Shown piece by piece: positions 4,429 through 29,273 of a stretch of 29,273 bases of DNA (its first letter is position 1; each line of letters starts with the position of its first letter). Below the pieces are notes generated by a model. The model searched no databases. It was not told the DNA's origin and saw only the letters and a program-made list of their open reading frames with translations. A program made the translations under genes and the position numbers. The stretch covers positions 620,001 through 649,273 of the forward strand of contig JBEWZL010000209.1 in the NCBI GenBank assembly GCA_045837725.1, given 5' to 3'. The DNA is from Vermamoeba vermiformis. Lineage: Eukaryota.

Positions 4429-4480
4429 GATTGAAATTGCATTGGAATTGCATTGATTTTGCATTGAAATTGCATCGAAT
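4429..4480 (+). repeat. 11-bp minisatellite (ATTGAAATTGC-like), ~4-5 copies
   Basis: attgaaattgc attggaattgc attgattttgc attgaaattgc atcgaatt. Confidence 0.8.
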
Positions 4481-4517
4481 TACGATAGAACGATGTTTTA
4501 GTCTAGTCACTCTTCGA

Positions 4518-4855
4518 GCGCCACAGAGGTATGAGAATAGCAAACGAAATCTCATTGGAAGTAATGCACTCTTTGAGCGCCACAGAGATATAGATTGCAG
4601 TCGATCCACGCAAAGATCCGCAATTCAAGCAAGTCCTCGTTGAGTGCCACAGAGGTGTTGATCTTCGAATTCGGTCAATTAATACAGTCATTTGAGCAAG
4701 GCTCATGTCGTGCGCCACAGAGGTCAACGATCGTTTCTCAATAACGAAATACAGTACTTTGAAGCTAATCACCTCCGGCGCCACAGAGTTATTAATTGCG
4801 TTAAATAGATGCAAAGATCTGCAATTCTAGTAAGGCATCATTGAGCGCCACAGAG
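4518..4855 (+). repeat. Phased array of six G(C/T)GCCACAGAG motifs, ~67-bp period, diverged spacers
   Basis: Copies start at 4518, 4577, 4644, 4712, 4778, 4845 (spacings 59, 67, 68, 66, 67). Confidence 0.9.
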
Positions 4856-5795: not shown

Positions 5796-6524
5796 TTATT
5801 CGTAGACTGAATACTCTTCGCCACTACATGTTATTTCATTCTTAAATTTGTAAGGCAAATTGTCATTTTTTGGTGATTTAACGGTGGTTTTGACGACCTT
5901 GGAAGTCTTCGTCTTGGATCGAGCAGTGGATTTACGTTTGGGGGCCGTTACGCTGCGCCTAATTTTGGTTAGTGCTACGCGCCCCTTGTTCTTCTTCCAG
6001 CTTGATCCAATATCGTAATCGTCATTGGCCTGTTCGTCGTTAGAAGTATTTGCGAATTCGATTTCAACGTCCTCTTCCTCTTCCGAATCGTCTGCATCTC
6101 TTATATTCAGCTTTGGCTTTGAGTAGTACTGACGAGTGACTTTTTGGCCTGGCGACAAGAAAGCGTTGTGATCCATCATAAAGACTATCGACTTGCGTTG
6201 TCCTTCTTCAAGGGCTAAATTCTCGTGAAGTAGCTCTCTCGATCTAAAGAAAATCATATCACCTGGTTTCAGTTCAAATCGTAGTTTAAGTTGTCGAAAA
6301 GCCAGATCTCCACCAGTATATTCTCCGAACGGAATAACGCAACAAAGCCCTTCAATTTCATCCTTATAACGCATAGCGTTAGTATAATTTTAATTTTTTA
6401 ACCACGTATTGCTTACCTTGCAGTCGTGGTGAGGAGTACTCGTGTGAAAATTGAGCGCGCACATCAAATAACTCTTGCCTAGAAGACGCTTTCTAGGCGT
6501 TTTGATGCCTCGGTAAGCATTATA
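5796..6524 (-). pseudogene. TET/JBP-family 2OG-Fe(II) dioxygenase, 5'-truncated (C-terminal ~225 aa)
   Basis: Exon 6524-6417 (..LMCALNFHTSTPHHDCK), 54-nt intron 6416-6363, exon 6362-5796 (DEIEGLCCVIPFGEYTGGDLAFRQLKLRFELKPGDMIFFRSRELLHEN..GQRKSIVF). HxD, distal H and RxS are intact. No credible upstream exon is visible beyond the 6524/6525 junction. Confidence 0.85.
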
Positions 6525-6594
6525 CTATATAGGAGGCTACTACAATTTAGGGTTATGCGTTCTACGGGCTGATAACACCCTTGCCTCTTATCTA

Positions 6595-6855
6595 GGGCGT
6601 AGTTTTGAGGACTACGCCCCTTCAAACCAGAACAGGGGTGTAGTCCTCGAAACTACACCCTTGCGAACCAGAACAGGGGCGTAGTCCTCAAAACTACGCC
6701 CTTGCAAACCAGAACAGGGGTGTAGTCCTCAAAACTACGCCCTTGCAAACCAGAACAGGGGTGTAGTCCTCGAAACTACACCCTTGCGAACCAGAACAAG
6801 GGCGTAGTCCTCTAAACTACGCCCTCACAAGCAAGAACAGGGTTGTAAACTACAT
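6595..6855. repeat. 41-bp tandem hairpin array (GGGYGTAGT-cctcraa-ACTACRCCC), five direct units plus one inverted unit
   Basis: Units start at 6627, 6668, 6709, 6750, 6791. The unit at 6595-6619 has the reverse-complement loop TTTGAGG. Confidence 0.95.
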
Positions 6856-7797
6856 GTGCAAAATATACATCTTATTTACCATGCTAATTCGCATGCTAAT
6901 TAGCATGCTATTTCTAAATGTGTGGGAAGCCAAACCAGAAAAGTGCAATGCGCCAGGGTTATGTTTGAGCTTACTCAGTAATGACTGCGTCAGTAACGGC
7001 AATGGCCACACCGCAGAATAAACAAAACAATTATTACATCAAAGCGGATGCGTAGAAAAGAGCGGGCAAGGCGAGGAGAGGGCACGAACGCGAAATTAAT
7101 GGTGGTGGTTTGTTGGCTCGTTGTTTAGTTTGTCTGATCTGAACCATTTTTGGCAATTACAAATTTTGTCAGCCCGTGACAGTCGACCAGGGCTTTCTTG
7201 TTTGCCGATGTGCTTGGCTACGTTCACTAGCTTGGCTGGCTAAGTGCGGCAACGAGGTGCCATAAAGCATGTTGTGCACGAAATTAACCAGGGTTTTGAG
7301 TAGCGGATCGGATCTGCTTGCTAATTATTTTTAACGTGCTCTTTAGCTTTAACAGCAACTAAGCATTGTGTCCCGCGACTAACGTTGTCTCAGATAATTA
7401 GGCTTTGACTCAACGGAGGCGGTTCCAGGTTCACCTCAGATCAACATTGTAGTTTTGCCATTATTATATAACATGACGAGATTAAGTATCAAACGCCGAA
7501 CAATAATCAGCAAGATGCAATGCGGAAACGTGGGCTTCAAAAAATAATTGGATCAAGCCGACAACTGGATGTACAATTAATTAGTATCGCTTAGTAAAAT
7601 GCCCGATACTGTTGTATCTCTCGAGACCATAAATAAAAAAAACACGCGTCAAATCTAAATTAGTACTGACGAGACGTCAATGATCACGTGCTGTTGTTTA
7701 TTTTTAGACGTCCGTAAAAAATTAATTTTTCAATCTCAACCCAACATAAACACGACGCCACACGTCGTATTTATTATTAATTACACGAGTACTGCCC

Positions 7798-8046
7798 AAA
7801 GCTCTACTCGTGTAAACCGAAGATTCAGCGCTTCCCAAAGACGTCGCTGTAATCTGAAAATCCGATCAAATCCAAAAGATTTGCTTTAATCGCAGCTATT
7901 ATATCTAAAGTATAATAATAAAGCTCTACTTTGTCGTGCAACGCAAAGGTTTCAGCGCTTCCCAAAGACGTCGCTGAATCTAAAAATCCGGGCAAATCCA
8001 AAAGATTTGCTTTAATCGCATTAATATTATATCTATAATATAATAT
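7798..8046 (+). repeat. ~122-bp tandem duplication upstream of gene A1
   Basis: AAAGCTCTACT..TTCAGCGCTTCCCAAAGACGTCGCTG..CAAATCCAAAAGATTTGCTTTAATCGCA occurs twice (from 7798 and 7920). Confidence 0.9.
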
Positions 8047-8134
8047 TGAAATTATTACGTACTCTCCACTGGCCTACGTGAATTAATTTGGCTGTCATTT
8101 TCTCGATTCAGATTTGATCGACGGAAATTTACAA

Positions 8135-10407
8135 ATGGTACGAATTTATGTGATTAAATAAATGATAATACACGTATTAATTTATTACTGTTATTTTTCA
8201 GGATCAACCGCTTCGTGTCAAAGTAGCAAGCTACATCCAGTTTTTAATGTTCGCGTGCAACCGAACACCAGCTCCAAACATCGATTCCTACGTGTCGAAC
8301 GTCTGCAAGATGATTGGGCAGTATATCAGCTCTTTCAATCGGCGTGAAGACTTTATCTTCTTCTTCTGCGTGTTCTGGTTTCACCAGATGTTGCCAGAAC
8401 ACGAAGACGGCAAGACGTACTTTCCGGCATGGTACAAGTCGTACCGCGATAAAATTACAGCCGCACTTGGAATCGACATGGGCTCTCCGGCATGGAAAGA
8501 ATTCGCCAACTTCTTTCACGGGTTTTACTCAATGTTCACGTGTGCCTTGAACATCGCCCAGTCAACCGTCAACAAGATTATCGTGCACCGGCCAGGCACC
8601 AACTATACTCAGGCTCTGCACACTGAGTACTACAAAATATGGATTGCCTTGCGTTATCATTATACTTACTGGCGTTCTGAGACCGAGCTGCGGTCACTGC
8701 TTGGCTCCGTAGACGTTTCTTTGCTTCAATGTGATTACGACCAACCATTTTTTACGAAGTTCACGTCATTCACGGTAGCACCTCTTCATTTGCCTTCAAT
8801 AGCACCGCACAGCACCGTTAGCGAGACCCCGCAACAGTACCAAAATACGCCGATGGGCTTCGTTTCTGGTTGCACAGGCTTGGGCTACGCAGCGTTTCAT
8901 CGTGCCGACTTTCTCAACACGAGCGCGCAAGCAATCTTTGTTGGGGCGAAGAGAAAGCTTGCCCAGACAGAAGAGACGACCCCGCAGCCCAAAAAACCAC
9001 GCTTAGACGTTCCTAACCCGGTGCAAGAAGATGAAAATTCACTCGTTATTTTAGAACCAGAACCACCAAGTCCAAGTCCAAGTCCAAGACCCAATTCTAC
9101 AGTGGAGCTGGTAAGCTTACTAGAGCCTAGGCCCTGATCGGCGTGTAAAAGGTCGAAGGAGTAACTAATTTGTTTCCTTGCAGGACTCTCCTCAAATTCG
9201 CGTGTCATATTCTTCGTCATCGTCTCCGTCGTCGCCAGCGTCATCATCATTTATATCCGTAGCCGAATCTGAAGGAATTTCTTTCTTGCCGGATGACTTT
9301 CAAGCAAAGTGTTCAACACTACAGGTTACGCACGACTTGTTTACCTCACTGAAGAAAAATCCAAAGGCTCTTTCCCGATATGAAAGGGTTAAATTAACGG
9401 GTTTTTCTTGTTCCTTGGCCGATCTCAACATCTTCGAATCTGCTCATTGTTGGGCTTTGGTGCTTGAAGATATGACGCTTGCTGAGCAAACTGAATGCGA
9501 ATCCATTAAACGGTATGAATTATTTATTACTTCAATATTAGGGTCTAATCTTGTCGCAGGTTGCCGCAAAAGTGTTTGGTCGTAACACCCGATCTTGACA
9601 CAAATCTCGTCCAACCTCTGTTAGCTGCCTGCCCGGACTTGGGAGCGATCCAGTTGCTAGGGATTAAGAGTTCTACTACACGGCTTGGTCTGGCGCTGTA
9701 TAACATGGCCCGCCTTCAATTTCTTCATCTAGATTCGGATGGCCACGTCACCAACTTTTACAATGCTTTCAAAGCGAAGACCTGCACTCAAGTATTGCAG
9801 GCAATATTCAAACGCGCTCCGAACCTCATTGGCTTGTTCATTCCGCTGCCAGACGAATCTGTCAGATTGGATTTGTCGTCCGTCAAATTCCCTCAGTCCC
9901 TGCATCTATTGGGTCTCAAGAGTCACGGGAGTAATTCAACAGTCGATATTCACGCTGTTGAAAACTTGAAAGTGCAGCATCTGGCACTTGTGAATCTGCG
10001 CATCGAGACACCAGAATGGTCTTACTCCGAGGATTCGGATGATTTATATGAAGACCTAGAACCCAAATATCCCTGGCTATATATTGGTGGTGACAACGAC
10101 AGATCTACCATGGAAATATTTTCGGACATAGTGCTGAATAGACCGTAAGTTGCTATTATTTTTCAACTTTTTATTTATTTAAACTAATAATTTGATTAAC
10201 AGATTTGGTTTTGAAGCACCTTCGTTGGTTCCGCAAACTCTGCTACCACTCCGGATGTTCTACGCAATTTTTTATCAAAGTGTGGCTGAAACTTACTCCC
10301 CGCAAAGCTCTCGCGCTACAGTAATTGAGCTATTTCGAACACTGCGGCCTTCGTATGAAGGATTTTACCCGGCAGTACCCTGTCGAACGTCGAACGAAAG
10401 AAGTTAA
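8135..10407 (+). CDS. Gene A1: unknown protein with helical N-terminus, NLS-like basic motifs, Pro/Ser linker and LRR-like C-terminal part
   Basis: Exons 8135-8137, 8202-9110, 9184-9512, 9560-10144, 10203-10407 join in frame through GT-AG introns. KRKL, KKPRL; LxxLxL repeats (LQFLHL, LIGLFI, LHLLGL, VQHLAL). The 3' end is uncertain because coding-like sequence continues in shifted frames to ~10616. Confidence 0.7.
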
Positions 10408-10675
10408 CTACAACCTATCACTTGCCGGCGATAATATTTTTATGGTGTTACCTCCGGACACCGCAGAGAGTGCGCGCCAAAAGTTCCTGTCGTTCAGAGG
10501 GTATTGAGCCCGCCAAATTTAACGCTCAAGCACGTGATACGCTGTGTTGGACCAATAAAATTACGGCGCCAGAGTTAAAAACGAATCTGCCCTCCTTGCT
10601 GCCTTGTCTATCTTGACACTGACTGAGTCACGTAACGCGCATTACTTCTACTACTCCTCCTATTCTCACGTTAAC

Positions 10676-13080
10676 ATGGTAAGTTTCCTGTCAAAGTAAA
10701 ATTGCACTGCTAGAGCGAATCGAATAATAGGTTTATTACTACTTAATAATGTATATTTCTAGTCGCAAAAAGATTACTTGGGCTTGGTGCGAAGCTACCA
10801 CTCTGAACGTTCTGGAGAATCTGCAAGCAACCACAACCAACCGGAGAGTGAACAGGAGTTTACTGAGGTAAGATTCGTTGCGGATTAACTACAAGCTTTT
10901 GTGGTTTAATATTTTTACATCCGTATCCAATTTAACATGTTTTTTTCCAGACTAGTACTTCTGTGCGAACGAACCCGGCACGCAAAGCCAAGGACGAATT
11001 CAATGCGTGGAGTTATTATGGTACGTCCTGAAACGATTTTTTCATCTTTTTTTGGATGCGGATTTAACATCCAATTTTAGAGTCGGATGAAGAAGTGTCC
11101 AGCAACATCTCGGCTCTTGAAGGTTTTGCTGAGCCTTCAGACAAGAAAGCAGCCAACACTAAATACTGGCTGAGCAACCCTGCCATGGAAGCGCACGATT
11201 GGAATGATCTTCACCAAACGGATGTCCCATCTGACGGGGATCTTGACTTCGTAGAAAACGACGAACAGCCTCTGCCCAACGATGAAGAGTTCATGGAGTT
11301 GGACAAGAGTGATGAGCAGGATGCTTACATGGACGAACCATCGTCCAGTGGTGATAGCGATTCCAGCTCCGACTCCAAGGCCAATGCTAGCAGCGACGTC
11401 GATTCCAGCTCTGAGGATGGTGACGACTCCAAGGCCAATGCTAACGGCAACGTCGATTCCAGTTCAAGGGATGGCGATGACTCGAAGGTTAATGCTGGTG
11501 GTGACGGCGATTCCAACTCCAAGGATGGTGACGACTCGAAGGCCAATGCTAGCAGCGACGTCGATTCCAGCTCTGAGGATGGTGACGACTCCAAGGCCAA
11601 TGCTAGCAGCGACGTCGATTCCAGCTCTGAGGATGGCGACGATTCCGGGGCCAATGCTAATGACGGAGACAATTCCAGCTCCAAGCGTGACGACTCCAGG
11701 GTCAATGCCAATGATCTTGATGGTCAACCAAATCTGCCTAAGCAAGCTCGTATGCCGCGTGGTGATGCTTCACGGCAGCGCGTTAATTCTACAACTGTAG
11801 CGCTGTCATCCCCTACCAGCCAAAAGACTAAAAGAGTTCGATTTAAATTGCCCACGATCGTGCGCACAAAAGCTCGAGACCATAAGCGCTCTTCTAAAAT
11901 ACTTCAGAAAGGTAAGTAGTCACTGCAGCAATTAATATAGATGGCTTATAATTTATTTCTAGATCGAGAAGCCTTGCGACTGAAGCGAGCGGCAAAGGCG
12001 AAGAAGCAATCTCATTACTCCGCAGGTCAGTATCAAAGTGAAATCAATTATAATTTACTAATTGTCTTTTAGAGACCAAGTGTAGCAACCTCAAGCAATT
12101 ATTGAAGGCGCAAGGTTCTCAAGAGGCGAAGGACAAGATAATTCACAAATATATCCGAGCGCTTTGTCAGAACTTGAATGTTCTAACCGAGTTCGGAGTG
12201 AATTGCTTGATAAAGGGCGAGGGCAAGTTCATTGGCTTTGGCTACAAAAAGAAGAAGTACAAACTCAAGCTTGCAAGCGGGGCAAAATCCTCCAAGCAAG
12301 GTGAAGCTGCTTGTCGGGAGGGTTCTCGTGCCACGACAACTTTGAGAACTGAAAAAGGTATTAGTTTTAAGTCAAATACCATTCTTTGACTAACAAACCG
12401 TGATAGAGCCGTCTGCTCGGGTTCGTAGTCTTCTTAACGAATGCCGTTTTCTTCGGGAGACCTACGAAAGGTTCTCGAACTTAAACAATGTCGGCTTACC
12501 TGCGGTTGCAACGACCCCAGGGCACGAGGTGCTGAGTTACTTCGTTTCTGGAGCGTTGGACCTAGAGTTCGATGAGAACGTGGACAAGGTCTCCAGTTCC
12601 ATCGATGCCCAACTTCAACTGGTCTCAAAACTTGAGCTTCGCGTTGTTGAGCTGACCGTCCTGATCAAGCTCAAGACCTTTTACATCGGTGCTCTCGTGG
12701 ATAAGCTGTCAGCTTTCTTTCGCGACAGATCGCACGCCGAAAATACGCAAGCCATGCAAGTGGAAGTGAACGACAATATCTTCAAAGTTTTGCAACACTG
12801 TGCACCTTCAAGTTTGGTTGCTGCCATGCCGGATGATCCGAACATTAAGAAGTTGGCTAGCAACGCATCCAAGTCGAACATGCAACGCAAGTTTTTCCGC
12901 CAATGGAAATTTCGGTTAAGCCGATTTTTTAGCATATGCTCAATTGAGCGAAAATTGCTTTTTACGGACTTGTCTCTCACGCAGATTGTGCGAACATTTC
13001 CGGACCCAAATTCGACAATGATTTTGTTCGATTACATTCGGACACATTCGGAAGAATATCCAGATTGGCTAACTCCTTAA
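10676..13080 (+). CDS. Gene A2: core gene 1, acidic repeat region plus conserved helical C-terminal domain; paralog of B3
   Basis: Seven exons from ATG|GTAAGT at 10676 splice in frame. C-terminus FFRQWKFRLSRFFSICSIERKLLFTDLSLTQIVRTF aligns with B3 AFRRWKSDLTKFFQLCSLKPVLLFSSLSYYFLVRSF. Confidence 0.8.
11356..11710 (+). repeat. Coding tandem repeat, 54 bp / 18 aa (DSSSEDGDDSKANASSDV), ~6 copies
   Basis: Seen in ORF 11095-11919 and in the DNA (gattccagctctgaggatggtgacgactccaaggccaatgct). Confidence 0.95.
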
Positions 13081-13086
13081 TACTAG

Positions 13087-16000
13087 CTTCGAGACATCAC
13101 CAACTCTTACCAGCAGGCAACTACCGACAATCGAAGTACGTAACTGCCTTCATGTTTACCGTAGCTAATTGTTTGTGAAAGGTTCTTCTATTTCACCTTT
13201 CAAAGTCAATTTTGATCTTCGCGAGTTCAACATGTCCGTCTGTGAAGGCAATTACGACTCAGACAAAGAAAATGCAATGGATTTTGATTTTTACAGTAAC
13301 AGTGAGTATTAATTATACATATAAATAATTCCTAACTGGTTGACGTGGTGCAGAAATGGACGATGCCGAGCTGGTTGAGGATCCGGAGTTGAAGCGACTC
13401 GAAGAAGAAGACGTTTGCACGCTTACTGGTAAGTTACAAAAGATGATATGGCGCCACTAATTATACTTCAGAGAATTGGCTAGCTGCCACCGAGTCCACT
13501 GGTCTATGTTATTTGGCACAACTTCGTGCGGCGCAGGGAACCCTTGATAGTATGTGCTGAGTCTTTTTACGAGTAGTGTTTAATACTCATTAACAGCACC
13601 TGCGTCAAAGCGTTCGACTTCGAGTAGAGTTTCTGCTCATCTGTCGCCCAACGTAGCAGAATCTCCTTCGAAGTGGCTTCGCAGCTCCCCAGTGAGCCCA
13701 AGTCAGCCACCAAGGGTGATGCCTCCCCGACGTTCAAGTCCGTTGCAAGTGCTCAATGCCACGCCTGAGCGACGATCACCAGCTCATGCGACACCAAAGC
13801 CCTCACAGCCGATTCGCACAAGCCCTATTCACTCTCCTTGTTTGTCTCCTGTGGGTTCGCCAAGCAACGACGAGGAAGACGTTGTGGGTTCACCAAATGC
13901 TTCGTGGTGCAATCACCGATCTGACGACGAAGAGTTCTCCGAAGCCTTTGTGGCCTCGCCAAGCGATGACGAAGAACTCTCTGAGAGCTTTGTGGGTTCG
14001 CCAAGCAACGACGAGGAAGACGTTGTGGGTTCACCAAATGCTTCGTGGTGCAATCACCGACCTGACGACGAAGAGTTCTCCGATGACTTCTACTCGTTGG
14101 TTAGAGACTGGCTTGCAGACGGCTCGGAGTCGAGCTTACCTGACCTGCTTCGATTCAACAAGTTGACTGATAAGGAGAAATCTGCCTTTTATACTTATGC
14201 AGAGCGGTAAGAGCAAATTTAAATTCCAGCCTGTTCGCTGACGTTTTGTTTACCAGTGATTTTATTGAGCACAGTTCGGGGCAGAAAGCTTACAAGGCTG
14301 AGTACCTCGATCGAATGCGCGCGGCACTTGAGACTGGCAGAGCTAAAGTTAGCGTCTACACTCAGCATTTGCTGCGAAACGCAAAGATCGTTAGTAGCGA
14401 CGCTGACTTTGGTTCTGATTTCGCGCGGGACATCGCTTGGATGACTTCCCAAGCCTATATTGGTCCAAGCTATCACCTCACGGCTAAGCACGATATGCAA
14501 ATCACCAGCAGCATCGACAACGATTTCATCGGCTTCGTGTTTGAAGATATTACCTTCATTAAGGTTCTAGTTGACCTTGTCTATTGCCCTGATTTTAGCC
14601 CGTCTGCAAAGCTCGACGATTGCAAGATGAAGTATGCTGGCAAATCTTTACACACCATTCCAAATATCTCGCTTGGGTAAGCGATACTTTTTGTTTGTTT
14701 CAAGCGCTGAATTATATTCTATTATTAGGTGCATTAATGAGAGTCTCTCGCTATACGTTACCTTTCCGTTCTGGGACGAGGATTGGGCGACTGTCATTCA
14801 CAGCTTTTTCAAAAGTTGTATCTATGAAGGTAACTTGGTTCGCTAAATCGATTACGACTTCTAATGTTAAATTCAGGGGTGCGCAACTCCAAACAAAACC
14901 GAACAGCACCGTTAGCGCCCTCATACGAGGTCGGTCTTAGGGTAACGCTACCCGGCATGACATTTTCGGCTAAATGTAGCACAATTAATAGTATTGGAAA
15001 AGCAATCAACGACTTCACGGAGCAAAACAAAAAGTAAGGTGCTAAACTACTAAATCCTATTAACGCTCTAATACAGGATGCAACCAGTGTTTGTAGTTCA
15101 ATATTTCGGACAAAAGGAGCCTGTTAGCCGGGCACGCGTCAAGAAAATCTACAAAGAGTTGGGCAAGTCGTTCGATATGGATATGGTGTACAATCATCGC
15201 CACGGGTCTAAAGCTTGGTTCTTCTTTGACATTGCCGAGGACTTTGCGTAAGTATAACGTTACTTTGTAACCGTATCTGTATTAATACCTTTTGTAGGTG
15301 CGGGGATCTCGAGAATGTAACGCTGTTTTTCACCCGAGAAGTCACACACTTGCTGAAAGACCGACAGCGATCCCCATTTGCGAGCTTGATGGTGCGAAAC
15401 TCGACTAAAACTGTACGAAAGCGTTCTGATGATCAATCAAAAGACTACAAAAGTTACACGTAAGTGCAGCGCGGGCATTGATTACGATTACTAATCTTCT
15501 CTTAAAGTTGCACAGAATATCCTAACTATGGGATTGGCTCGTTTGCAAGTCTAACGCTTCATTGGAAAAATCAGTACTCTCTTCTGCACAAAATTAAAGT
15601 TTACGACAAGTCGAGCGAAGTCTTCCGCCACAACTCGCCGTTCGCTGATGTCTGGCATGCAGCTCTCTCATTTCCTTTTCAGAGTGTTAAATCCTTGTTC
15701 TCTAGTGCGCCGGCTCTTTCAAAGAGACTGGAAAATCGCTTGAAAAGTGAAGAGGAGCAGGTTAGCGCTCGCACTCATTACAACCGTGCGGAGGCTTTGT
15801 ATTCTCAAGTATTGCCAGACAAAGCATACGGACCGCGAGTGGAGCTTACACTGCAAAATGCAACTTTGGAGGAGCTTACACGGGCCTATGACGCGCTAGC
15901 GGAGTTTGCAGAGGCTGTTGTATGCCTTTTCAACGTGACAAAGGCAATATATCAATGCGGTTTGGCCCCGAAAGAGATACTGCGGTGTTGCCCGATCCAA

Positions 16001-17549
16001 GCCGTGCAAACAGAAACATTATGTTCCATCCCTCGCATGTTCACGCGTAGCATTGCTAACTACTTCTACTCATTATTGCAGCATATAACGTCCGGTAAGT
16101 TTCATAATCCACTTTATTTTCGATTTTACTAACGAAAATCACAGCCAACCACTTGCAAGCATTCGCGTACAATGACCACTTTGTTCGTCTTGCATTTTTG
16201 CTGCAGGACCAATTAACTTTCATCTGGTCTGGCTCTGTTCAATCACTACTTCATCCGACGCTCTTCACTCGGTACAAGCAACCAGAAGCTGTGTTTGAGT
16301 ACGGACACTTCTACGTGAGCAAAGAGCTGCTTGTGCCTAGCCTAGACTTTGCAAAGGCTAGATTGTATGCAGTTTATCGTGAGAACGAGACCGACAACGA
16401 TGAAGTTGACCTACTCGACGTGGGCTTACCGCGCCAGTTTATTTACAAGATATTTCCGGACGCCAGCGATCAACAAACTCTTAACGAAATCTTAACAAAT
16501 GTGCGATTATGCTTGTGCTCGTCGGATGGTGTTGTGTCCCCAAAAGACAGATCCATCAGCTCGATTTTAGCTGCCAATTTGGTCAACTCTCTATTTGCGG
16601 CCTTGTTTAGTGCAGCGAACATTGTCTCGTCATCCAAGAAGGCGCAATTCGTCAAGTTGTTGCAAGGAAAGGATCGAGATGCGATCAAGTCATTTCTCGA
16701 GCGCGCTTATTTAACACAGACGAGTTCTGAGACTCCTATCGAGGTACGGAATAATTAAATGCTCGATGGCGTTTCTAACGTCTTTTTAGATACTTTTTAA
16801 AGAAGGATTACGAAGTGTTCGTGACATCGTTGACATTGCATTCCCTCTCGAGCCAACAGATCAGCCATTTAACCGCACGCCAGTGAAAGTCAATTTCGCT
16901 AAACAATGGACTCTCGCAACAAAATCCGTCATCGGGCATCTGAATGATCGCTTGAAGGTTGGCAATTTGAAAGCAGCGAAGACTTTGCAACATATTCGGT
17001 CGTACACCCACGACATCCTAACTGCGGAATCCATCGTTGCGAAAGTGCGTGGCTTGCTGTCTGACTTATCCTTGCGGTTCTTCCCTGCTTTCTCATCGCA
17101 TACTTTCTGGGGCTACAATGGCAAGTTTAAACTCACTGCAGTAGTACCTAGCTCACGACCTCGCGTTTTGCAAATCATCAGTGGCAAACCTATACTAACG
17201 GAGTCAAAACAAGTCATCGACAACGAAGCCAAACTTCGCGTAAGTTGCTAAGTCGTGTATAGCACCGTAGATTTTGCTAAGTTTTTTTCAGCTTCTTAGG
17301 TATATCTGCATGCATTCTAAGGAAGTAGAGGGCGTAAAAAGCCGATCTGAACTGCTCGCGCATTGCACGTATCACGCTTTCAGAAAGACGGACATGACGG
17401 TTAAAAGACCCAAGTACCACAACGCTGAGAGGGACTTCATTTTCGCGACTGGCTTATTCCCGTGGGTTCCTCCAAGAGCCCAGATCTTGCCCGCGCCAGA
17501 TTCGGTGTGGTTAAAAAAGTTCCGCGATATTTTTGGCAAGGAAAACTAG
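13087..17549 (+). CDS. Gene A3: core gene 2, large multi-exon protein with Rep_trans-like motifs (putative rolling-circle initiator/transposase); apparently intact
   Basis: About 14 exons splice in frame to TAG at 17549. Motifs IDNDFIGFVF (14513), FFDIAED (D at 15228), KIKVYDK (Y at 15602), GPRVELTL (R at 15836). The start is either shared A2 5' exons or ATG 13232. Coding status is well supported; the function call is inference. Confidence 0.75.
13850..14083 (+). repeat. ~93-bp coding duplication (VGSPSNDEEDVVGSPNASWCNHRxDDEEFS), 141-bp period
   Basis: Near-identical copies at 13850-13942 and 13991-14083. Confidence 0.95.
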
Positions 17550-17840
17550 TTTGTAATGCTCTGTTATTGCAGTAAACATAACTCAATATTACTCGCGCAT
17601 TCAACACGTAAGTCTCAAGCACTAAAAGCCAGAATAATGTTGATTTGTTTTGATCCGGATCTTTTCTTTTACGTTAATTTACCCCAAATTTACTTATTTT
17701 TATTTGTTTATATGTCATAAATTACGATATTAAAAATATTTGAATTAAATCATGCGAGTCAAAATCTTGCATCCGAATCCGCAATTAGTATACTATGTAG
17801 GGCTAACTTCTACTTTAGGGTTTAACTTTTAACTTTTTTT

Positions 17841-18135
17841 ACAGGGGCGTCCCCGTGACGTGGACGGGGGTCTGGTCAAACTTGGTCAACAAGGGGGCGT
17901 CCCCGTGGCGCGGACGGGGGTCTGGTCAAACTTGGTCAACAAGGGGGCGTCCCCGTGGCGCGGACGGGGGCTGGTCAAACTTGGTCAACAAGGGGGCGTC
18001 CCCGTGGCGCGGATGGGGGTCTGGTCAAACTTGGTCAACAAGGGAGCGTCCCTGTGGTGTGGATGGGGGTCTGGTCAACAACAAGTGTTCCCACGGCACA
18101 GATCAGGGTCTGGTAAAATTGGTCAACAGGAGGCG
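17841..18135. repeat. 50-bp GC-rich tandem array with CCCCGT-ggcgcgg-ACGGGG hairpin, ~6 copies decaying rightwards
   Basis: Unit aagggggcgtccccgtggcgcggacgggggtctggtcaaacttggtcaac at 17841, 17891, 17941, 17990, 18040 and a degenerate copy at 18080. Confidence 0.95.
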
Positions 18136-18243
18136 TTCCTGTCACATTAAACATCATGTAGAGGGCTTGTATTGACTTCATTTAAGTGTAAAATAAAGAT
18201 TTCATGTGCCAATACAAAGCGAGTGTTTTTTTAAGTAATCAAA

Positions 18244-18301
18244 TTTATGGCCAGCCATAAAGCTAAACAGACTGAGGATACAAATTATGGCCAGCCATAA
18301 A
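18244..18301. repeat. Two copies of the palindrome TTTATGGCC(G>A)GCCATAAA
   Basis: 18244-18261 and 18284-18301; same motif as in the 20.2 kb and 25.2 kb arrays. Confidence 0.9.
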
Positions 18302-18433
18302 AAAAAAGGAAACTGGATGAACTCTACCTTTAAGGTGAGGCAGACAAGTTCTTGAGACAATTTTACCCAAAATAAAAGAGCAAGATGTCAAAGTACAAGT
18401 CACATTTACCAAAAGACGTTTTTTATTGAAAAT

Positions 18434-19611
18434 TTACAAGGAGTAAATGTCTAAATTAATGAAAGAATACATTTGTTTAATTTGAGCAATTTTTTTGGCA
18501 CCGTTGCCTTGAAGAACCATTTTGATGAGAACAGTGACAGATACAGGAGAGGTCGGGTCATTGATGTCAAAATTAGAAGAGCAATCAAGAAGCAATAATT
18601 TCTTGCCATTTTTAATCATATCTTGCAACAATCTAAGGCATGCAGGCTTCGCAGTTTCTAAAACCCATAGATAAGGCAAAATGAAGAACAAGTCATGTGC
18701 CATGGAAGGAGTGATAATGATGGCGCTCGTTTCCCCCTATTATGACAATTAGATAAGAATTATTGAATGCAAATAGTAAACTTACCAATTGCCAGCCTAA
18801 AAGTTCTTTTGACGGTTCCTTGCGGTGAATTTTTTCTTGCAACTGCAACATTGTTGTGTTGATTGTAGGATTGCTTTTGAATAGTTTGAAGCATTCATAA
18901 ATGCCTTGAACTGTAATTGAGTTCCTGGATGAATTGATAACCTACTTGAATGGTTAATATGTAAAGGCAAGTGAAACAAAGGGCACGTACCGGAATATGG
19001 GAAATAGCTGGTTGAAAATGAGCTTGCAAGGTGTAGAATACTTTGGTAGTATCTCTAATTACAATCTTGGTGTTAGAAGACAATAAAATGCCAGAAAAAA
19101 CAACTTACGTAATATCAATAACCTCTAAGTCCAAATGTCGTTGTCTTAACAAGGAGATTGTTTTGGTGTCGCTGACCTTTGCGCAAAAAATTGAAGGGGG
19201 TTGGGCTGGTAGTGAAGGAGGCTGAAAGTTTGTTGTTGCCTTGCAGTCATCGCTCTCAAGGGCCGTTGCAGGACAACCATTTGGAGAGAAGCGCTCAAGT
19301 ACTTCAGGTTCGGAGCTTGTGTCTGCAAAACTAATGAGCTTGTGAAGGGCAAAAGAAGTAAGGGAACAAACCATCTTCGGATTGAATCTTCTGTTTGCCC
19401 ATATTGTGCACTCTTTGTACTGTAAAAACTATCAGTAAATTATAAAAATAATTATGATATAACTTACTTTCTTCTGCCGTTGGTTTGTAGCCAGCAGGTT
19501 TTCCTATTTTGCGTGCCAGATGTCAGTCAGTCACTTGTCACGAAAAAAAAGAAATGATAATAGTTACAACTTACCAGCATAAAGAAGCATTATTTTATCA
19601 GCAAGGTTCAT
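18434..19611 (-). CDS. Gene B1: DUF6939-like (NADAR-related) protein, ~285 aa, seven exons
   Basis: Spliced product ..LEVIDITDTTKVFYTLQAHF..HIPV..ITVQGIYECFKLF..LLGWQLG..FILPYLWVLE..LLLLDCSSNFDINDPTSPVSVTVLIK follows the pattern I recall for DUF6939 (IIDVTS..GIPVP..SVEGIWQGLKVF..YxPxYxWVLE..VLLDYxTNxD..PLSHA). Confidence 0.7.
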
Positions 19612-19899
19612 TTATTCAGTGATTTCTAAATTTTCTACAAAATAATTAAATAATTGGATGCGGATTTAAAGCACCAGTGAATTTGGGTAGCTGGCTTATG
19701 TACATAAATTAATAATGTAAAAATGGTTTACTTACTTTAAGTCTTTCAGGTAGAATGGCCTTCGTGGTTGTGGTACCTCGTGGAAAAAATTTTGATCTAG
19801 ACCAGAGTTTTTTTTTTGTTTTGCTTTATTTTAACTTGTAAACCCAAGTAATACCTCTTGTGGCATTTAAAAAACCAAGCCCTCACCACCGGAATTGCA

Positions 19900-22800
19900 A
19901 TGGAAGACGTGGTAAAAGCGCGCGAGATCGTACAACAAAATCTGCCAGAATTGCCCAGTGAAGTAAGTTAAAATACTAAATTTACCTGGCAAATAATTAT
20001 ATATTATACCTTGCAACCAATAAACTGGTTTGCCTTGGTTTTAACTGCTTTTTTTTTTTTTAATCCGCATCCGGATCTTTTTTTTTAAATTAAATTCTTG
20101 CCTGGCTTCAATTAGTACACCAATTATATTATTATAATTAGAATTTTAAAATTTTAGCTTAAATTAAACCAAACTGCTGGACAAAGGAACTTACGCACCT
20201 TACATTTTATGGCCGGCCATAAAATTTTTACCAGGACTAAGTCCAAAAATGCCTCAAAGGCGCAGGTTCGAATCCGGGTGGGGGCAATTTTTTTTATTTT
20301 CTTTATGGCCGGCCATAGAGTCCTGCTATATTGCCTCAAAGGTGCAGGTTCGAATCCAGGTGCGGGCAATTGTTTTTATTTTTCTTTATGGCTGGCCATA
20401 GAATTTCTACTGCACTGGAGCAGGTTTGAATCCAGGTGCGGGCAGTTTTTTTATTTTTCCTTTATGGCCGGCCATAGAGTCCTGCTATATGCCTCAAAGG
20501 CGCAGGTTCGAATCCGGGTGCGGGCAATTATTTTTATTTTCTTTATGGCCGGCCATAGAATTTTTTTATTGCAGAATTACCCTGTCTTCTTTTTTTTCTT
20601 ATGTTGGCCACCTATCCAATTATTTCTAGTATAAATCAACACATAGTTGTCTTTTTTTTGGACTTTCTGCATCGAATCTGATCCGATTCAGATGCAGTGT
20701 AGGTCATCAAACACAGTGCTAATTATATTTTTACAGACATTTGCCTTGGATACCTCACAGTACGAGGTTGTTACAGAGTTTGACACGTTAACTGACAGGC
20801 CTTGTGCAAATCCCGGATGCGCACAAACCGAGTGCTACCTGTAAGCAGCACTCCATGAAATTAACTTGTTAATTTTTTCTGCAGCTTGCCACATTTGAAT
20901 GTTTCCTTTTGCAAGCAACAGCTTCAACAGGGAGCAACAATGGTTACGTTGTCGGAGCCCTTGTACTCCAAAGGTAGCTCAATTAAAGGACGAGGGTAAG
21001 ATGACAGAAATATACATATAAGTAGATGATTATAATTCTAACAAACCTCCTTTGTTGCAGCTTTAATATTCGTGAGTTGTCCATGGATCATGTCAAGCGA
21101 CTCATGTTAATCTGCGTGCCATGGTACTCAAGCCAAGGAACTCCAACAGTCGTGCCAATACGACATAAAGAAACAAAGGAGTATGGCTATGCTGTTTGCA
21201 TTGGTATGTACTATATTTGTCTGAAGACGTCGTACTTTTTTTAATTCAATTTGCCCCAAGGACAACATCGTGCTCTTGTGGGTCATTACTTTATGCAATG
21301 GAAGTTGATTGATACAATGCAAGTGAATATTCTTTTGCCATCAAGTATGCAGGTGAGTAAAGAATTGAATGGTGTAAAAAACATGACTAAACTTCTTTTA
21401 GGACTTGTACAACAGAGGATTGGACATGCAGAAGAATGACACGAAACACTTTTTGGATCTACATGCAATGGATAAAGTGCTTCTAATCCAACAGTTATGC
21501 GACTCAATGGCTAAAATGGATGGAACCACTTACCCAGAGGCTACCCAAGCAAAGCAGAACGAGTATGTCAAAAGAGCAAATGAGGCACTCGAAAACCAGA
21601 AGCTTGGTATGCAATATATATCTTTTAATTATTTGCAAAGTACTCATTCTTTTTTTGGTACAGGTGATTGCGTGCAGTTGTTCAAATTTTTACCACGACA
21701 GTTATTCTCAGATCCAAGTGTTGTTCTGACAAGTTATCTCACACTGGCCAATGTTTTCACTGCGTAAGCTAACCACCAATTGATATTTGGCATTCTAAAG
21801 TATTGTTTTTTAGGAAAAAGCAACCATTTACTGTGAAGAACTTACTTGGAGTTGCTATTAAGAATATAGCAGAGAAAGACAAGGTGGAGCTGCTGACACG
21901 ACTAATTGAACGCACCAAAAACTACCAAAAATGGTGTATGTTGATTTTATTCCCAGATTGTGTTAAACTAATGAATATTACTTGTTAGGGCTTGATAGGC
22001 GTGAAGAAGCTCTGAAGCACTTTGCTACAACTGGCAGGAAGAAAAGTTATCTCCCTGATCAAATGAAGTGTAAGTAGTTAATTGATTAGTATTCTTACTA
22101 ATAATGACTTTTCCTCAGCCGTGCCAGAAATGCCTTCATGGAGGGAGGAGATAGTTATATGGCGTGGCAAAATGCTGCTAAAGGAGAGGTGCGTGCACAT
22201 CTTGAATCTTCCTCTTGAAGAATGGGATTCGGATTTGCACAAGACAGCAGAGAAGTTTTTTGTTGACAACCTTCAACAAGGGCTTTTGGCTAGTGAAGGC
22301 CAATACTTATATGAATCAGAATTCTCCCTGCAGCTGGGCAAGATTCCTAATTTTGCACAAGCAGTGAAGAAGTGGATTGTGCCAAGATACATGTACTACG
22401 AGCCTTCTCAAGTTTCTCAGGTGCTGGCTGAAGTTAAGAAGGGTGTTATAATCACTCTTTCTTCGTACAACCTCACTCCTGATGCCTTTACCCTGCTCTA
22501 TGGTGATCGTAACAAATTGCCAACAATCGGTAAGCTTATCTGACTTATTGTTTTGCCAGTGGTTAGTATTAATGTTAATTTCTTAGCTGTTCTACCTCCT
22601 GAAGTAGCACGTAGTGATAAGATTCGTCCATATTTCACAGCTCTTTGGATAGATGAGAATTGCGCCATTGGCATTCGTAATTTTGATTCACTGTGCAAGA
22701 CATCAGTACAGCTCAATGCATTTTTTGAGTGTGTTGCTTGGGGAGTGACAGATGGCAAACTGCTTCACAAAGAAACCAAAAAGACTGCCATCATAAATGG

Positions 22801-25118: not shown

Positions 25119-25183
25119 TTTTGCGTAAATAAATTGGGCTGATTATATTAAAAAGATTGCAGTGTATCAAGTACAAAGAAAAG

Positions 25184-25450: not shown

Positions 25451-25669
25451 CATTTGCTACTAGCTATGAGCTTCATATGCAATTGTTGTAAGCCTAATAG
25501 ATAGTTTCTGACTGTTATTTGTTACTGTTTGTACGTGGTGAGTTTTGACCGTCAAAACAGTTTGCCGACCAAATTTTGCACGTGAATGCACACCCCTTAT
25601 TGTGAATCTTTGTTTACTGTATTGTCAACTAAGAAATACAACTATTTTAAATTAAAACAAACCTTGGAA

Positions 25670-27766
25670 ATGGACAGCAACCCCATTGGCAGTGCTTCTG
25701 AGCGCTTATCCGACGAAGAAATGGATATTGAAGAGGTATGTAGTAATTTTAGCAGTTTTTTTGATAATGATTGTGTGCCTGAATTAGAGCAAATTTTCTA
25801 CTGCAACTTAAGCACTCAAATTGTCTTCGAAGCTGCATTTATTTTTTTTTTGTACTCGCATCTGAAAACTAAGCTAAAGCATTGGACTTCCAATTACATA
25901 TTATCCCTTTATAAAGCAATTTACAAGAGCAGCAAATTTGATATTCTATTGCAATTGGATATGATGAAAGTAACCGCACCTACAAGCATGAAGGAGGTGC
26001 TAAAATCAAAGTCAAACTGGTCGAACCACTTCTTAATCTTTTTTGCTTGCTTATGTTATAGTAAATCCAAAGAGAAAAATCTTTGGGAAACAGCTAACCC
26101 TATTTTCCTAAAATTCTTGAAGAAAAATTGCAACACTTTGTACCCAATGTACAAAGGCATAAAGAGTGAGGTAGATATCTTGTCATCAATTATTGCAATT
26201 GTTCATCCTGTGATAAAGTCCGTGCCTGTTGCAGAAGAAATTGTTTCAGGAAAGAGAAAGAGAGATGATAGTGAAAATGAAGAAGAACCGTCAAAAAAAC
26301 AAAAGACTGATGGAGAAAATGACTCACAGCGTACTAGGAGGAATGTAGGCAAAAAAGTGCCTAAAGATATTCAAGAGACTCTGCGCAGTTATAGCGAGCG
26401 ATGGAAATCTGATCAGATCCCTAATGAGGAATCCAGCAAAATGAGTGAGGAAGAGGCAGGTGAGTATCTGAGTGAGGTTGAGGAGGGAGATGAATTGGAA
26501 AGTGAGGAAGAGCAGGAGAACCAGGATCATGATTCAGAAATGGGAGGTGACAACAGCCACCTGACTGCAAGGTTAAGCAGAGCACTAGATGAGCAGCAAT
26601 TTGAGAACAGTGTGAAAAAACGAAAGAAGGTACAGTCTTCCCCAAGAGGAGATCTTCAACAATTAAATAAGTTAAAGAATACTTTGAGCAACCTCAACCC
26701 AACAATTGTCAATGCCGGTGAGTATTTGGAAGCTAAACAAGCAACAGAGATGGCAGTTGATTTAATTAGACAGTTCTCACTGTTTGGAGTTTACTTCTCC
26801 GTCAAAAAAGAAAAAGGACATATGCGAGTTACATCTGTAGGTAACATTTACACTGATGAGGAAATATCCCTTAAAGATGAAGAGAAAGCACAAATCAAGC
26901 TGATTAGGCAAACAAAAAAACCATATTCTTCATTGCTTGAAAAAGAAACCCGTAATTCTGAATCCAAGTTACTTTTTGATCTTACGCAAAAGCAGTACCA
27001 AATTCTTTCAACAGCTACTTTTGCCAAAGGAATGTTCAGGTATGTAATGAGAGGAGGAAAGAAGGTAGAAATGTCAGAAGAGTTTGCAAAATGTGCTTTG
27101 CATGTACCTGATGTTGTTCTTGCTTATTTTGAGTCCAAAGAAAAGCGGGCAGAAGTTTTTAAAGATTTGGACCAAAAGAATAAGATTAATGACAAGTTAA
27201 AGTCTATTCTTACAATTTGTGAAACATTTGTGGACCACGAGACTGAAATTATTGCTGCAAAAAAGTTAAGAATGTTTGCAATTGGTTGGTTGATGTCAGC
27301 AAAGAGTGACAAGCTAACCAAGGAGTTAGTAAACAAAGAGACACAGCGATTGCAAACAGAGAATGAAGGTAAAAATGAATTTGAAAAGCTGACAGCAAAT
27401 CAAATTAGCAAGCTAGCAAGAGACAAGGCAGCATCAGAAGTGAATGAAAAACTCGCTCAGTACCTAAAGGACACTGTTGCCAATTTGCAGTTTAAACGGT
27501 CTCTTGCATGCTCTGACCCGTCAACACTTTTGGAGATAAAGCATGTTGAAACAGATGCTAAACAAGCTTTTCGACGGTGGAAGTCAGACTTAACCAAATT
27601 CTTCCAATTGTGCTCGTTAAAACCAGTTTTATTATTCTCCTCTTTATCATATTATTTTCTTGTTCGATCTTTTGTTTCTCCAAAGGCAGTAGATGGTCTA
27701 TTTAGAGTAATGCAAGAAGAAAATTTTGAGCCCAGGTTCTGGTATCAACCAGAGCAATACATCTAG
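25670..27766 (+). CDS. Gene B3: core gene 1, paralog of A2 (~700 aa, NLS-like motifs, acidic tract, helical C-terminal domain)
   Basis: Long ORF 25586-27766, likely ATG at 25670. Shares the F+xWKxxLxxFFxxCS+xxxLLF motif, an upstream (L/E)FGV motif and a terminal WxxP with A2. Confidence 0.85.
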   Translation: MDSNPIGSASERLSDEEMDIEEVCSNFSSFFDNDCVPELEQIFYCNLSTQIVFEAAFIFFLYSHLKTKLKHWTSNYILSLYKAIYKSSKFDILLQLDMMKVTAPTSMKEVLKSKSNWSNHFLIFFACLCYSKSKEKNLWETANPIFLKFLKKNCNTLYPMYKGIKSEVDILSSIIAIVHPVIKSVPVAEEIVSGKRKRDDSENEEEPSKKQKTDGENDSQRTRRNVGKKVPKDIQETLRSYSERWKSDQIPNEESSKMSEEEAGEYLSEVEEGDELESEEEQENQDHDSEMGGDNSHLTARLSRALDEQQFENSVKKRKKVQSSPRGDLQQLNKLKNTLSNLNPTIVNAGEYLEAKQATEMAVDLIRQFSLFGVYFSVKKEKGHMRVTSVGNIYTDEEISLKDEEKAQIKLIRQTKKPYSSLLEKETRNSESKLLFDLTQKQYQILSTATFAKGMFRYVMRGGKKVEMSEEFAKCALHVPDVVLAYFESKEKRAEVFKDLDQKNKINDKLKSILTICETFVDHETEIIAAKKLRMFAIGWLMSAKSDKLTKELVNKETQRLQTENEGKNEFEKLTANQISKLARDKAASEVNEKLAQYLKDTVANLQFKRSLACSDPSTLLEIKHVETDAKQAFRRWKSDLTKFFQLCSLKPVLLFSSLSYYFLVRSFVSPKAVDGLFRVMQEENFEPRFWYQPEQYI

Positions 27767-27818
27767 AGTAATTTTCTAATTTATTTGAAAGATTATAACA
27801 TCTAACTATTATCAACAG

Positions 27819-29273
27819 AAATCCTTGGTGGAGCGGATAATATGCCACAGACTGGCCAAATTACAGCTAACTCCCACTTCTGCCCATAATCGTGCAGTTG
27901 AGGAGCGTCAGCAATGTGACAGGATGAAGAATTTCATCAACAAGGAAATCAGCATTGACACAAACCCAGCTTCAGAGGATTCGCCAAAGCAAACTCAACA
28001 AGACAACGGTAACAGCCTCCTAAACTAATCATAATTGATGTTCTAACATCTTTAATAGCAACCTCAAGTGATTCAGACGAGGAATGTGGCTCATTTGATT
28101 TATTTTCATCAATAGACGATTCAAGTGTGGCCTCTTTGAAGCTGTTTTCATCAGCAGAAGATGATTTTGAAGATTCAGTAAGCACCATCAGATATATTTT
28201 GTAGTTTGAATTAATCATTTGCAAAGGAAAATCTGGAGAAATCATGCTGGTTTGATTTAACAGAGTTGGAAGTTAATGAAGCAAATCTGCTTCGTGCAAT
28301 TTCTAGAATAACAACGTAAGATTCGTTGTAGATTTACAAAACTAATTTTTTTTTAGACAAAACAAGCTGATAAAATCTGTCTATAACCAAGACAAGGGAG
28401 AACATGTTTTAGTGAAGGTAATTAAGGGCTTTGTCAATAGCTTATTGACTTTGGTTACAGACTTCGAAGGATTTGCAGCACATTCATGAAAATCTAGAAT
28501 GGATGTCTAGCTGCAATACCATGCACTCATATGAGCACGATCCATTCAGAAAGCTTGATTACCAAATGGATTTGGATGCAACTGTAATTACCAGCTCAAA
28601 ACTGAACTTTGTGAAAAGCCCAATGCAAATGACAGTGTATCCACGAGCTAGTGATGCAATGGCAAAATCCAAACTGATTATCAATGGCTCTGCATTGCAT
28701 AAGAAGTTAAATGCTTATTTGGGGTAATGTTGATTATGAGTAAGGAAAATTATTAATTTTTTTGAATAATGAAGGGTAGGAGTATACTAGAAGAAATAAT
28801 AATCTAATGCTTTAACTAGAGTTGAGGTTCTCTTTGTAATGCAAGTGTTTGGTGACAAAATGGAGGTTAAGTCATCTTCCGAAGTGCATGCCTATCTGAC
28901 AGAGATTGAGCGCCACTTCATGCTGCCAAATCAGAACAATGATACCAAACACCAATTTTTTCAGGATATTGCAGCAGATATTGGGTAAGCCACTCTGATA
29001 ATTTGCTCTTCAGCTCTAAACAGATGCTAGGGTACATAGAAAGAAGGGAGCAAAAACAGAGTACTTAACAACCTGGAACCCATTGGTTTTGGACATTTTT
29101 CTCAATTCAGAAGCATCACCATTAAAGTCCTTGATGGGTACTGGTTCTACAAGAGCAGGGCGTGTTTCATCATACCCCCAGCTTGGGAGTGCATTGATCA
29201 AAAGTGCAATGGCTCGTTATGCAAACAGAAAAAACAATCTGTTTGAAGTGAAACTTTATTCTAGAGCCAGTCA
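27819..29273 (+). CDS. Gene B4: core gene 2, paralog of A3 (Rep_trans-like), incomplete at the window edge and lacking two exons relative to A3
   Basis: Spliced: ..MDLDATVITSSKLNFVK..VYP..GSALHKKLNAYLG|VEVLFVMQVFGDK..FFQDIAADIG|..SPLKSLM..YPQLG..EVKLYSR. A3 reads IDNDFIGFVFEDITFIK..YCP..GKSLHTIPNISLG..PVFVVQYFGQK..FFFDIAEDFA..SPFASLM..YPNYG..KIKVYDK. Three phase-2 introns sit at matching positions. Confidence 0.8.

Follow-up and report, generated by a model that had tools for sequence, protein, structure and literature searches.

Candidate mobile DNA elements joined head to tail at TATA beside a broken oxygenase-like gene in Vermamoeba vermiformis

What breaks off a gene behind a TATA at one position and appears again behind a TATA further along the same strand? 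This question is raised by a stretch of 29,273 nucleotides from Vermamoeba vermiformis (contig JBEWZL010000209.1 of assembly GCA_045837725.1, positions 620,001 to 649,273 of the forward strand), referred to here in its full length as the window. In this window, a gene piece with weak resemblance to TET/JBP-type 2-oxoglutarate- and Fe(II)-dependent (2OG-Fe(II)) oxygenases stops at position 6524, where a stretch called here element A begins, and A in turn gives way at position 17793 to a second stretch, element B. A and B appear to be large mobile DNA elements that lack terminal inverted repeats; in each, a conserved bipartite 5' end is followed by an array of its own, and the 3' end (...CAATTAG) is unlike the 5' end and weakly conserved. 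At least two, and probably three, such elements follow one another head to tail in one orientation, and TATA stands at each joint. That position 6525 is the end of a mobile element is considered very probable. With regard to the way in which the stack arose, the favoured reading, to which we give a probability of roughly 0.4, is an integration aimed at the resident element's own end, in which TATA would be the shared core.

The repeat boundary and the joints

Within the window, exactly two places match the pattern CTATRTAGG-N12-TTTAGGGTT, namely 6525-6554 and 17793-17822; both are on the + strand and directly preceded by TATA (6521-6524 and 17789-17792), and TTTAGGGTT is present window-wide at these two sites only. 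A preliminary description of this DNA had reported the motif in these places with an identity of 19/30, and this was confirmed by the ungapped alignment of the two sites (23/34 with TATA included). Taken alone, this score is at chance level, as a best 30-mer match of at least 19 was reached in 132 of 200 shuffled windows and an unrelated site of the real window scores 18 against the 30-mer. The full pattern was found in none of 100 shuffled windows, in a test that is circular, the pattern having been derived from the same two sites. Unlike the bare identity, the block structure, the register and the context of the two sites exceed chance. The 75 nt before each of the two G+C-rich arrays give a local score of 10.5, which 0.6% of 19,804 randomly drawn pairs of window pieces also attained; this score covers the block TATACTATRTAGG only, and the 9/9 block, which keeps the same register, adds to it with an estimated chance probability below 1e-3. 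At both sites a tandem array begins 29-51 nt after the motif start, and the gap between the motif end and the G+C-rich array is 0-40 nt at A and 21 nt at B. The two arrays are different sequences with a common GGGGYGT core.

The motif was also searched for in JGI metagenome contigs, which gave 22 stretches, none of them (0/22) with other DNA or protein similarity to the window; as relatives, they were rejected as chance matches. In three contigs of one metagenome (L004, L007 and L020), the motif lies inside an unrelated repeat of their own and is preceded by ATAT, which is probably a coincidence.

Independent evidence comes from X1, a DNA sequencing run of the same organism, the Logan contigs of which were aligned to window positions 5300-20700. 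In two X1 contigs, the match to the window is confined to the part from 6519 rightwards, and their left flanks of about 155 nt fit neither the window nor one another (agreement 0.67). The summed contig depth amounts to 720 over the A array and 400 over the B array, against about 22 in unique parts; over B it is about 65-80. Joint 1, between the oxygenase gene and A, is bridged by a single X1 contig (5581-6548), and joint 2, between A and B, likewise by a single one (15589-17813), each with 0 differences. Because the two contigs match from 6519 rightwards only, the arrays are high-copy and the joints are bridged, 6519-6525 is a repeat boundary with the repeat on its right side, and both joints are real. 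Two earlier proposals, namely that the motif marks the conserved 5' end of repeated elements and that A ends in TATA where B begins, are supported by these contigs. In the A-like copies of other X1 contigs, the six bases ATTATA before the motif are in common, not TATA alone, and TATA or ATTATA stands ahead of all three known A-like copies.

On the left side of joint 1, the oxygenase gene is read on the - strand. Its first exon (6417-6524) is an open frame of 36 codons ending in an HHD (HxD) motif, and is followed by an intron of 54 nt (6363-6416, GT..CTAAC..AG) and by a second exon (5799-6362) with the stop codon at 5796-5798. Both the HHD and a later invariant H, which are candidate iron ligands, are present in this piece. 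The TATA at 6521-6524 had been taken in the preliminary description for TET codons; the frame is indeed open from 6524 down to the intron, but the TET/JBP similarity is weak and is found from the HxD motif onwards only. The matches of the second exon to Tet_JBP (E 0.0028, 17.3 bits against a cut-off of 34.9) and to 2OG-FeII_Oxy_3 (E 0.007) are both below the Pfam cut-off, and no match was found among PDB sequences. Directly upstream of 6524 stands a TAG codon, which makes the joint the start of the frame. The five relatives found are all C-terminal fragments; no longer homologues were found from which the uninterrupted gene could be reconstructed, and no N-terminal half could be recognised among the open reading frames (ORFs) scanned on the minus strand to the right. 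From the frame that starts at the joint, the C-terminal relatives and the missing N-terminal half, it follows that the oxygenase gene is truncated or interrupted at joint 1, with the break in an exon or in an intron (a possible AG acceptor lies at 6512). Two RNA runs gave 55 and 24 reads, nearly all of them partial and none on the oxygenase exon or the A genes; almost all of the RNA depth falls within 19692-20700, and the loose ends in that interval consist of T or A homopolymers.

To the left of the oxygenase gene, at 4412-4859 and 5387-5726, there are more repeat blocks, first with 11-bp units, then with six units that recur about every 67 bp and have GCGCCACAGAG in common on a single strand, in addition to a pair spaced by 275 bp. 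Loose contig ends at 5610 and 5631 reveal another repeat boundary there. Further left, the ORFs at 371-1861 (- strand, 497 aa) and 2227-3336 (+ strand, 370 aa) had no Pfam match. The features of the window are collected in Table 1.

Table 1. Coordinates of the features discussed in the text, counted from the first base of the window; here and in the text, a slash inside a sequence marks a border.
Feature	Position	Strand	Remarks
Weakly TET/JBP-like 2OG-Fe(II) oxygenase gene piece	5796..6524	-	Pfam, frame and intron reading
Joint 1, TATA between oxygenase gene and element A	6521..6524	.	X1 contigs; ATTATA common from 6519
Element A	6525..17792	+	about 11.3 kb, every long ORF on the + strand
5' terminus of A, CTATATAGG-N12-TTTAGGGTT	6525..6554	+	pattern match, alignment
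Subterminal array of A	6554..6881	+	about six 41-bp units, GGGGYGT core, high-copy in the genome
First gene region of A, three ORFs	8181..10145	+	no family match
Domain of A in common with the C-terminal end of the relative's 726-aa ORF	12394..13077	+	blastp, phmmer
Hallmark gene of A, several exons	13584..17546	+	matches P0009; no known family
Joint 2, TATA between A and B, inside the 10-bp palindrome TAGTATACTA	17789..17792	.	X1 contig bridge
Element B	17793..20124	+	about 2.3 kb, without hallmark gene; 3' end between 20115 and 20128
5' terminus of B, CTATGTAGG-N12-TTTAGGGTT	17793..17822	+	pattern match
Subterminal array of B	17844..18078	+	4.7 units of 50 bp, GGGGCGT, high-copy
ORF inside B matching Pfam DUF6939	18437..18736	-	E 4.9e-7, 30 bits against a cut-off of 27
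Possible joint 3 (tentative), TATA within ATTATA/TTA	20125..20128	.	75 nt before the next tandem array
Distant relative of A, same gene order	25586..29273	+	726-aa ORF, then hallmark-family exons; runs off the window

Ends, genes and relatives of the elements

The two ends of the elements are unlike each other. No inverted copy of the 5' terminus occurs in the window, the array units are confined to the 5' sides of A and B, and the ends of both elements, when inverted, have only CTA/TAG in common, which leaves them without terminal inverted repeats. At its 3' side, A ends in ...CAATTAG (17782-17788) followed by TATA, or in full ...AAATCTTGC-N11-CAATTAG/TATA. TATA is thus found at both ends of A, and the flanks are compatible with a repeat of TA, of TATA (in which case B is flanked on the right by TACA or TATA, according to the position of its 3' end) or of ATTATA. 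The 41-nt units of the A array form strong DNA hairpins (z -4.4 and -5.8); the units of the B array, both termini (z -0.8 and -0.2) and both 3' ends (z -0.08 and -0.85) fold no better than shuffled sequences.

The last and most characteristic gene of A encodes a protein of about 1,200 aa, referred to here as the hallmark protein. The gene matches a spliced homologue of 1,236 aa (P0009) from residue 215 to its end at 1236, with 37-67% identity per piece, and the protein is conserved relative to this homologue at about 64% identity. Its family is narrow, since only 51 relatives, all of them short fragments, were found among 1.84 billion representative proteins. Residues D75, D83, D85, E92, K117, K123, H126 and N130 are invariant in one hallmark exon (alignment A6), and a K, R, N, R, P, Q, W, G, N and N are invariant in the core. 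Two motif readings made by eye are presumptive, namely a primase-polymerase-like one (DxD...GKxLH...D) and a tyrosine-recombinase-like one (R...HxxR...H...Y); the R..HxxR..H..Y pattern is not kept in three distant relatives.

The search for enzymes of known families covered all ORFs of the window of at least 80 aa, many shorter ones and P0009 with Pfam scans (98 ORF scans). No DDE transposase, HUH/Rep, helicase or reverse transcriptase domain was found in the ORFs of at least 80 aa or in P0009; Helitron-like, PIF1 and other helicase matches were likewise absent from the scanned ORFs and P0009, and a Walker A motif from the ORFs of at least 80 aa, P0009 and P0063. Scans of a genome-contig and a viral-contig collection with the protein P0008 gave no relative. 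Because the defining enzyme test of every class considered failed, the elements are filed under no known class.

The introns of the window are of a fungal type (GTAAGx...CTAAC...AG, about 50 nt), and the GC content of A is 0.44-0.50. Within the A genes, a coding tandem repeat of 54-nt units at 11370-11708 encodes an acidic Ser/Asp-rich stretch, and a 141-nt duplication lies in a Ser/Pro-rich linker at 13850-14089. Pieces of A (8196-17593) are also present at about 95-99% identity and low depth in X4, a run labelled as another organism, in which the oxygenase locus is not represented; they may stem from a close relative, from contamination or from a transfer.

Beyond the ends and short 3' pieces, A and B have nothing detectable in common. 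A 19-nt match links 17653-17671 in A with 20069-20087 in B, and near its 3' end B reads AAATTCTTGC-N7-CAATTAG/TACA at 20092-20119, then CCAAT/TATA/TTAT. The 9-mer CAATTAGTA at 20109-20117 matches 17782-17790, and such 9-mers arise by chance (E 4.4). A secure 3' end of B at 20117-20119 was rejected, as it rests on this non-significant match; the corresponding p value of 0.016 is circular, the site having been chosen by the match itself. The DUF6939 match inside B is the only above-threshold family match of the window, and nothing was found in the literature on this family.

The placement of ATTATA/YTA hints at a third, perhaps a fourth, joint with TATA. ATTATAYTA has five matches in the window against 0.43 expected, for a pattern picked after seeing the sites, and its + strand copies at 6519, 20123 and 25142 each lie 19-75 nt ahead of a tandem array. 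The bases after 20129 could be read by eye as a copy of the terminus decayed by transitions. Further to the right lies a distant relative of A, with candidate 5' ends at 20129 or at about 25149, in a part of the window that is more A+T-rich (GC 0.36-0.38). Its 726-aa ORF (25586-27763) is intron-free, and the C-terminal end of this ORF matches A at 12394-13077 (blastp, 28% over about 125 aa, E 1.8e-10; phmmer, E 1.6e-8); two hallmark-family exons follow at 28449-28724 and 29020-29271, with hidden Markov model E values of 2.5e-11 and 1.7e-15, respectively.

Tandem units of 76-82 bp that resemble the 3' half of a tRNA (GGTTCGAATCC...) are found at 20204-20567, 25167-25461 and 18242-18301. A T run comes next and then the palindrome TTTATGGCCGGCCATAAA; the units occur in direct and inverted copies, with an X1 depth of 513. 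ARAGORN and Rfam made no call in the window, these units included. They may be a repeat similar to short interspersed nuclear elements or to miniature inverted-repeat transposable elements, or the subterminal array of the third unit.

Proposed integration at a resident end and the alternatives

The reading favoured here supposes that an excised copy, which would probably be circular, integrates by conservative recombination. The partners would be the joined ends of this copy (3' end-TATA-5' end) and a site resembling that joint; this site could be the TATA that flanks an element already in place, or a similar sequence, for example GCATTATA within the oxygenase gene. On this view the crossover would take place in TATA as a core common to both partners, without any true duplication, and a site fit for reuse would remain on either side after every integration, from which stacks could grow. 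As the enzyme, the reading proposes the lineage-specific protein of about 1,200 aa encoded by the element itself, or some other of its uncharacterised proteins. Targeting of the border appears to be needed because different elements abut exactly with one TATA, though TATA is a very common word; without targeting, an insertion precisely into the TATA next to an element already present, as seen here once and perhaps twice, would have a very low probability. The target lends weak support: the 15 nt to the left of joint 1 match the A 3' end at 10 of 15 positions (read from the alignment, with p about 0.05 by estimate), and the consensus of the flanks in the other A-like copies has the ending ...ACAATTATA, which is close to CAATTA(G)TATA.

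Several observations weigh against an integration of this kind. Profile and sequence searches with the hallmark family gave no match in Pfam, PDB sequences or the ESM Atlas, a tyrosine or serine recombinase domain was not found with Pfam in the ORFs of at least 80 aa or in P0009, and the AlphaFold models were too poor to use (predicted local distance difference test, pLDDT, of 57.0 for P0001 with 25 sequences and of 42.9 for P0008 with 22 sequences), so that no enzyme was identified. As ATTATA is common to the other A-like copies, part of the 'TATA' may belong to the element itself. Only two joints are certain, the third having been recognised through a pattern chosen after the fact; the 3' end of B is uncertain, and the CAATTAG nearest to it precedes TACA, not TATA. 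The 3' third of A has the X1 depth of unique sequence, with no second copy of at least 90% identity to define the 3' boundary. Furthermore, no empty site, circle junction or excision joint was present among the X1 contig pieces and loose ends listed.

Part of the evidence could be accommodated by cut-and-paste DNA transposons that duplicate a strict target (TA, TATA or ATTATA), that are mobilised by a DDE transposase, either their own and unrecognised or acting in trans, and that stack through a preference for AT-rich borders. A 2-bp TA duplication fits every flank (TA/A/TA, then TA/B...CAATTAG/TA), the bases ahead of the three A-like copies agree with such a target, and the invariant D, D, D and E of the hallmark exon would be in keeping with a DDE enzyme. 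Moreover, TA-duplicating PHISTA and ESTA elements and Kyakuja elements without terminal inverted repeats are known in fungi that carry TET/JBP genes (PMC12730594). This explanation has to contend, however, with one-sided arrays and with ends in which only CTA/TAG is inverted, with the absence of any DDE family match in Pfam (a novel fold is possible, both models being unusable) and with the exact abutment of different elements, which would demand extra targeting. In the supplement of PMC12730594, the ESTA consensus starts begin with CAC, mostly CACCAC, TTTAGGGTT and its complement are absent from the first 400 characters of the consensuses, and CTATATAGG occurs twice in one unrelated Kyakuja consensus. 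Taken together, cut-and-paste transposition is regarded as a somewhat unlikely origin of the stack. Rolling-circle or single-strand transposition, which the preliminary description had proposed as a kinship with IS91 and IS200/IS605 and which would extend to Helitrons, would insert the element beside a fixed short word without duplication and build stacks by bypass or targeting of an end. Asymmetric ends without inverted repeats would be expected from it, as would the placement of both elements between A and T (A/CTAT...TTAG/T), their head-to-tail order on one strand and the strong single-strand hairpins of the A array units, and TET-carrying Helitrons occur in rusts and Agaricus (PMC12730594). 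Membership in these groups is nonetheless unsupported by the ORFs of at least 80 aa and P0009, without HUH, Rep or helicase domain, and by the lack of Walker A in these ORFs; in addition, the 3' ends form no hairpin, and four bases separate the stacked units, where direct abutment would be expected. Helitrons begin with 5'-TC and end with CTRR-3' and a 3' hairpin, in contrast to CTAT... and ...TTAG here. Such a transposition is therefore held to be improbable.

The remaining two explanations dispense with independent insertion. In one of them, the window would be a local duplicated or recombined array of a subtelomere-like kind, or a composite element with an internal copy of its end, and the telomere-like TTTAGGG would be a relic or a protein-binding box. 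The common orientation of all units and the succession of several different tandem arrays across the window agree with this, and TTTAGGGTT contains what we take to be one telomere-type repeat unit. That there is a single such unit per site, that A and B are otherwise dissimilar and that A-like 5' ends are present in two other contigs with unlike flanks all speak against it, which makes it a distinctly improbable account. In the other, already considered in the preliminary description, 6525 would be an ordinary minus-strand intron acceptor of the oxygenase gene, with a likeness to 17793 due to chance or to a shared splice or regulatory signal. On the minus strand a pyrimidine-rich ...CCTCCTATATAG does stand directly before the open frame, and the 19/30 identity would by itself allow for chance. 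Nevertheless, the same 34-base arrangement recurs at 17789, with the A 3' end behind it and no oxygenase exon, the two X1 contigs with unlike flanks match on the element side only, and the putative intron would open with a 330-bp high-copy array; nor was an oxygenase-like minus-strand ORF found among 28 ORFs of at least 35 aa in 18205-25308 or among the ORFs of at least 80 aa within A. An ordinary splice site is, on these grounds, scarcely credible.

A bolder form of the end-targeted integration would make of these elements a new class of eukaryotic mobile element, with an enzyme of no known family (the candidate being the hallmark protein, in which DxD...K..H and R/N/W positions are invariant), and the element would integrate into a relative's joint around a TATA core. 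This is considered rather unlikely; if it were true, head-to-tail cassette arrays would form much as in integrons or tandem prophages. At a minimum, the elements are a new family that fits no existing class and for which a 5' end, a subterminal array and a hallmark gene are defined; at most they are a new class with a new enzyme.

Relation to known systems

If integration is indeed aimed at the ends of resident elements, the window would hold a mobile element outside the classes defined by their enzymes (DDE, tyrosine or serine recombinase, HUH and reverse transcriptase), and its own ends would serve as landing pads, giving rise to nested, co-oriented stacks in repeat-rich regions of fungal genomes. 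The hallmark family would be a concrete candidate for a new recombinase. Even under an ordinary reading, ends, subterminal arrays and a hallmark gene are defined for a family that was not recognised by the libraries searched, and an oxygenase-like gene of a kind usually carried by transposons appears here to be broken by one. A search of the literature for fungal elements that lack terminal inverted repeats, lie head to tail and are flanked by TATA found nothing.

Among the systems with which A and B can be compared, Starships, which have a tyrosine-recombinase captain and are found in Pezizomycotina, are likewise large, with cargo genes that all point away from the 5' end, short direct repeats and a site preference; unlike them, A has no DUF3435 captain at its 5' end and measures 11 kb instead of tens to hundreds of kb. 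DDE elements with TA or TATA targets (PHISTA, ESTA and those similar to Tc1/mariner) differ from A and B, which have no terminal inverted repeats. Kyakuja, PHISTA and ESTA, as described in PMC12730594, share with this locus a neighbourhood rich in TET/JBP genes; Kyakuja has no inverted repeats, and PHISTA and ESTA duplicate TA. No KDZ, Harbinger or EnSpm-like transposase was matched here, however, the ends are not CA..TG or CACCAC, and the oxygenase-like gene is the target and not the cargo; six short peptide words of the oxygenase sequence had no match in the table of PMC12730594. To Helitrons, IS91 and IS200/IS605, the likeness consists in the asymmetric ends, the possible placement between A and T, the head-to-tail order and the hairpin units near one end of A, and the difference in the missing Rep/HUH or helicase gene, the other end motifs, the lack of a 3' hairpin and the four bases between units. 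Subterminal hairpins at both ends, as in IS200/IS605 and IS91, were not found, since only the units of the A 5' array fold well.

The comparison with Cryptons goes furthest. Cryptons are a few kb in length, compared with 11 kb for A, and they differ from A in that no tyrosine recombinase (no Phage_integrase-type match) was found in the latter, which instead has a long subterminal array and several large genes of no known family. Notwithstanding, A shares with them the lack of terminal inverted repeats and a 4-bp direct repeat (TATA) at both ends that is possibly a microhomology with the target; Cryptons are described in PMC3212892 and PMC13465315 as having no inverted repeats and direct repeats of 4-6 bp, which are interpreted as microhomology with the target. 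An integration logic based on circles has been proposed for Cryptons, and would account for the stacking seen here. By this analogy, A and B would seem to act most like a Crypton or another site-specific integrating element.

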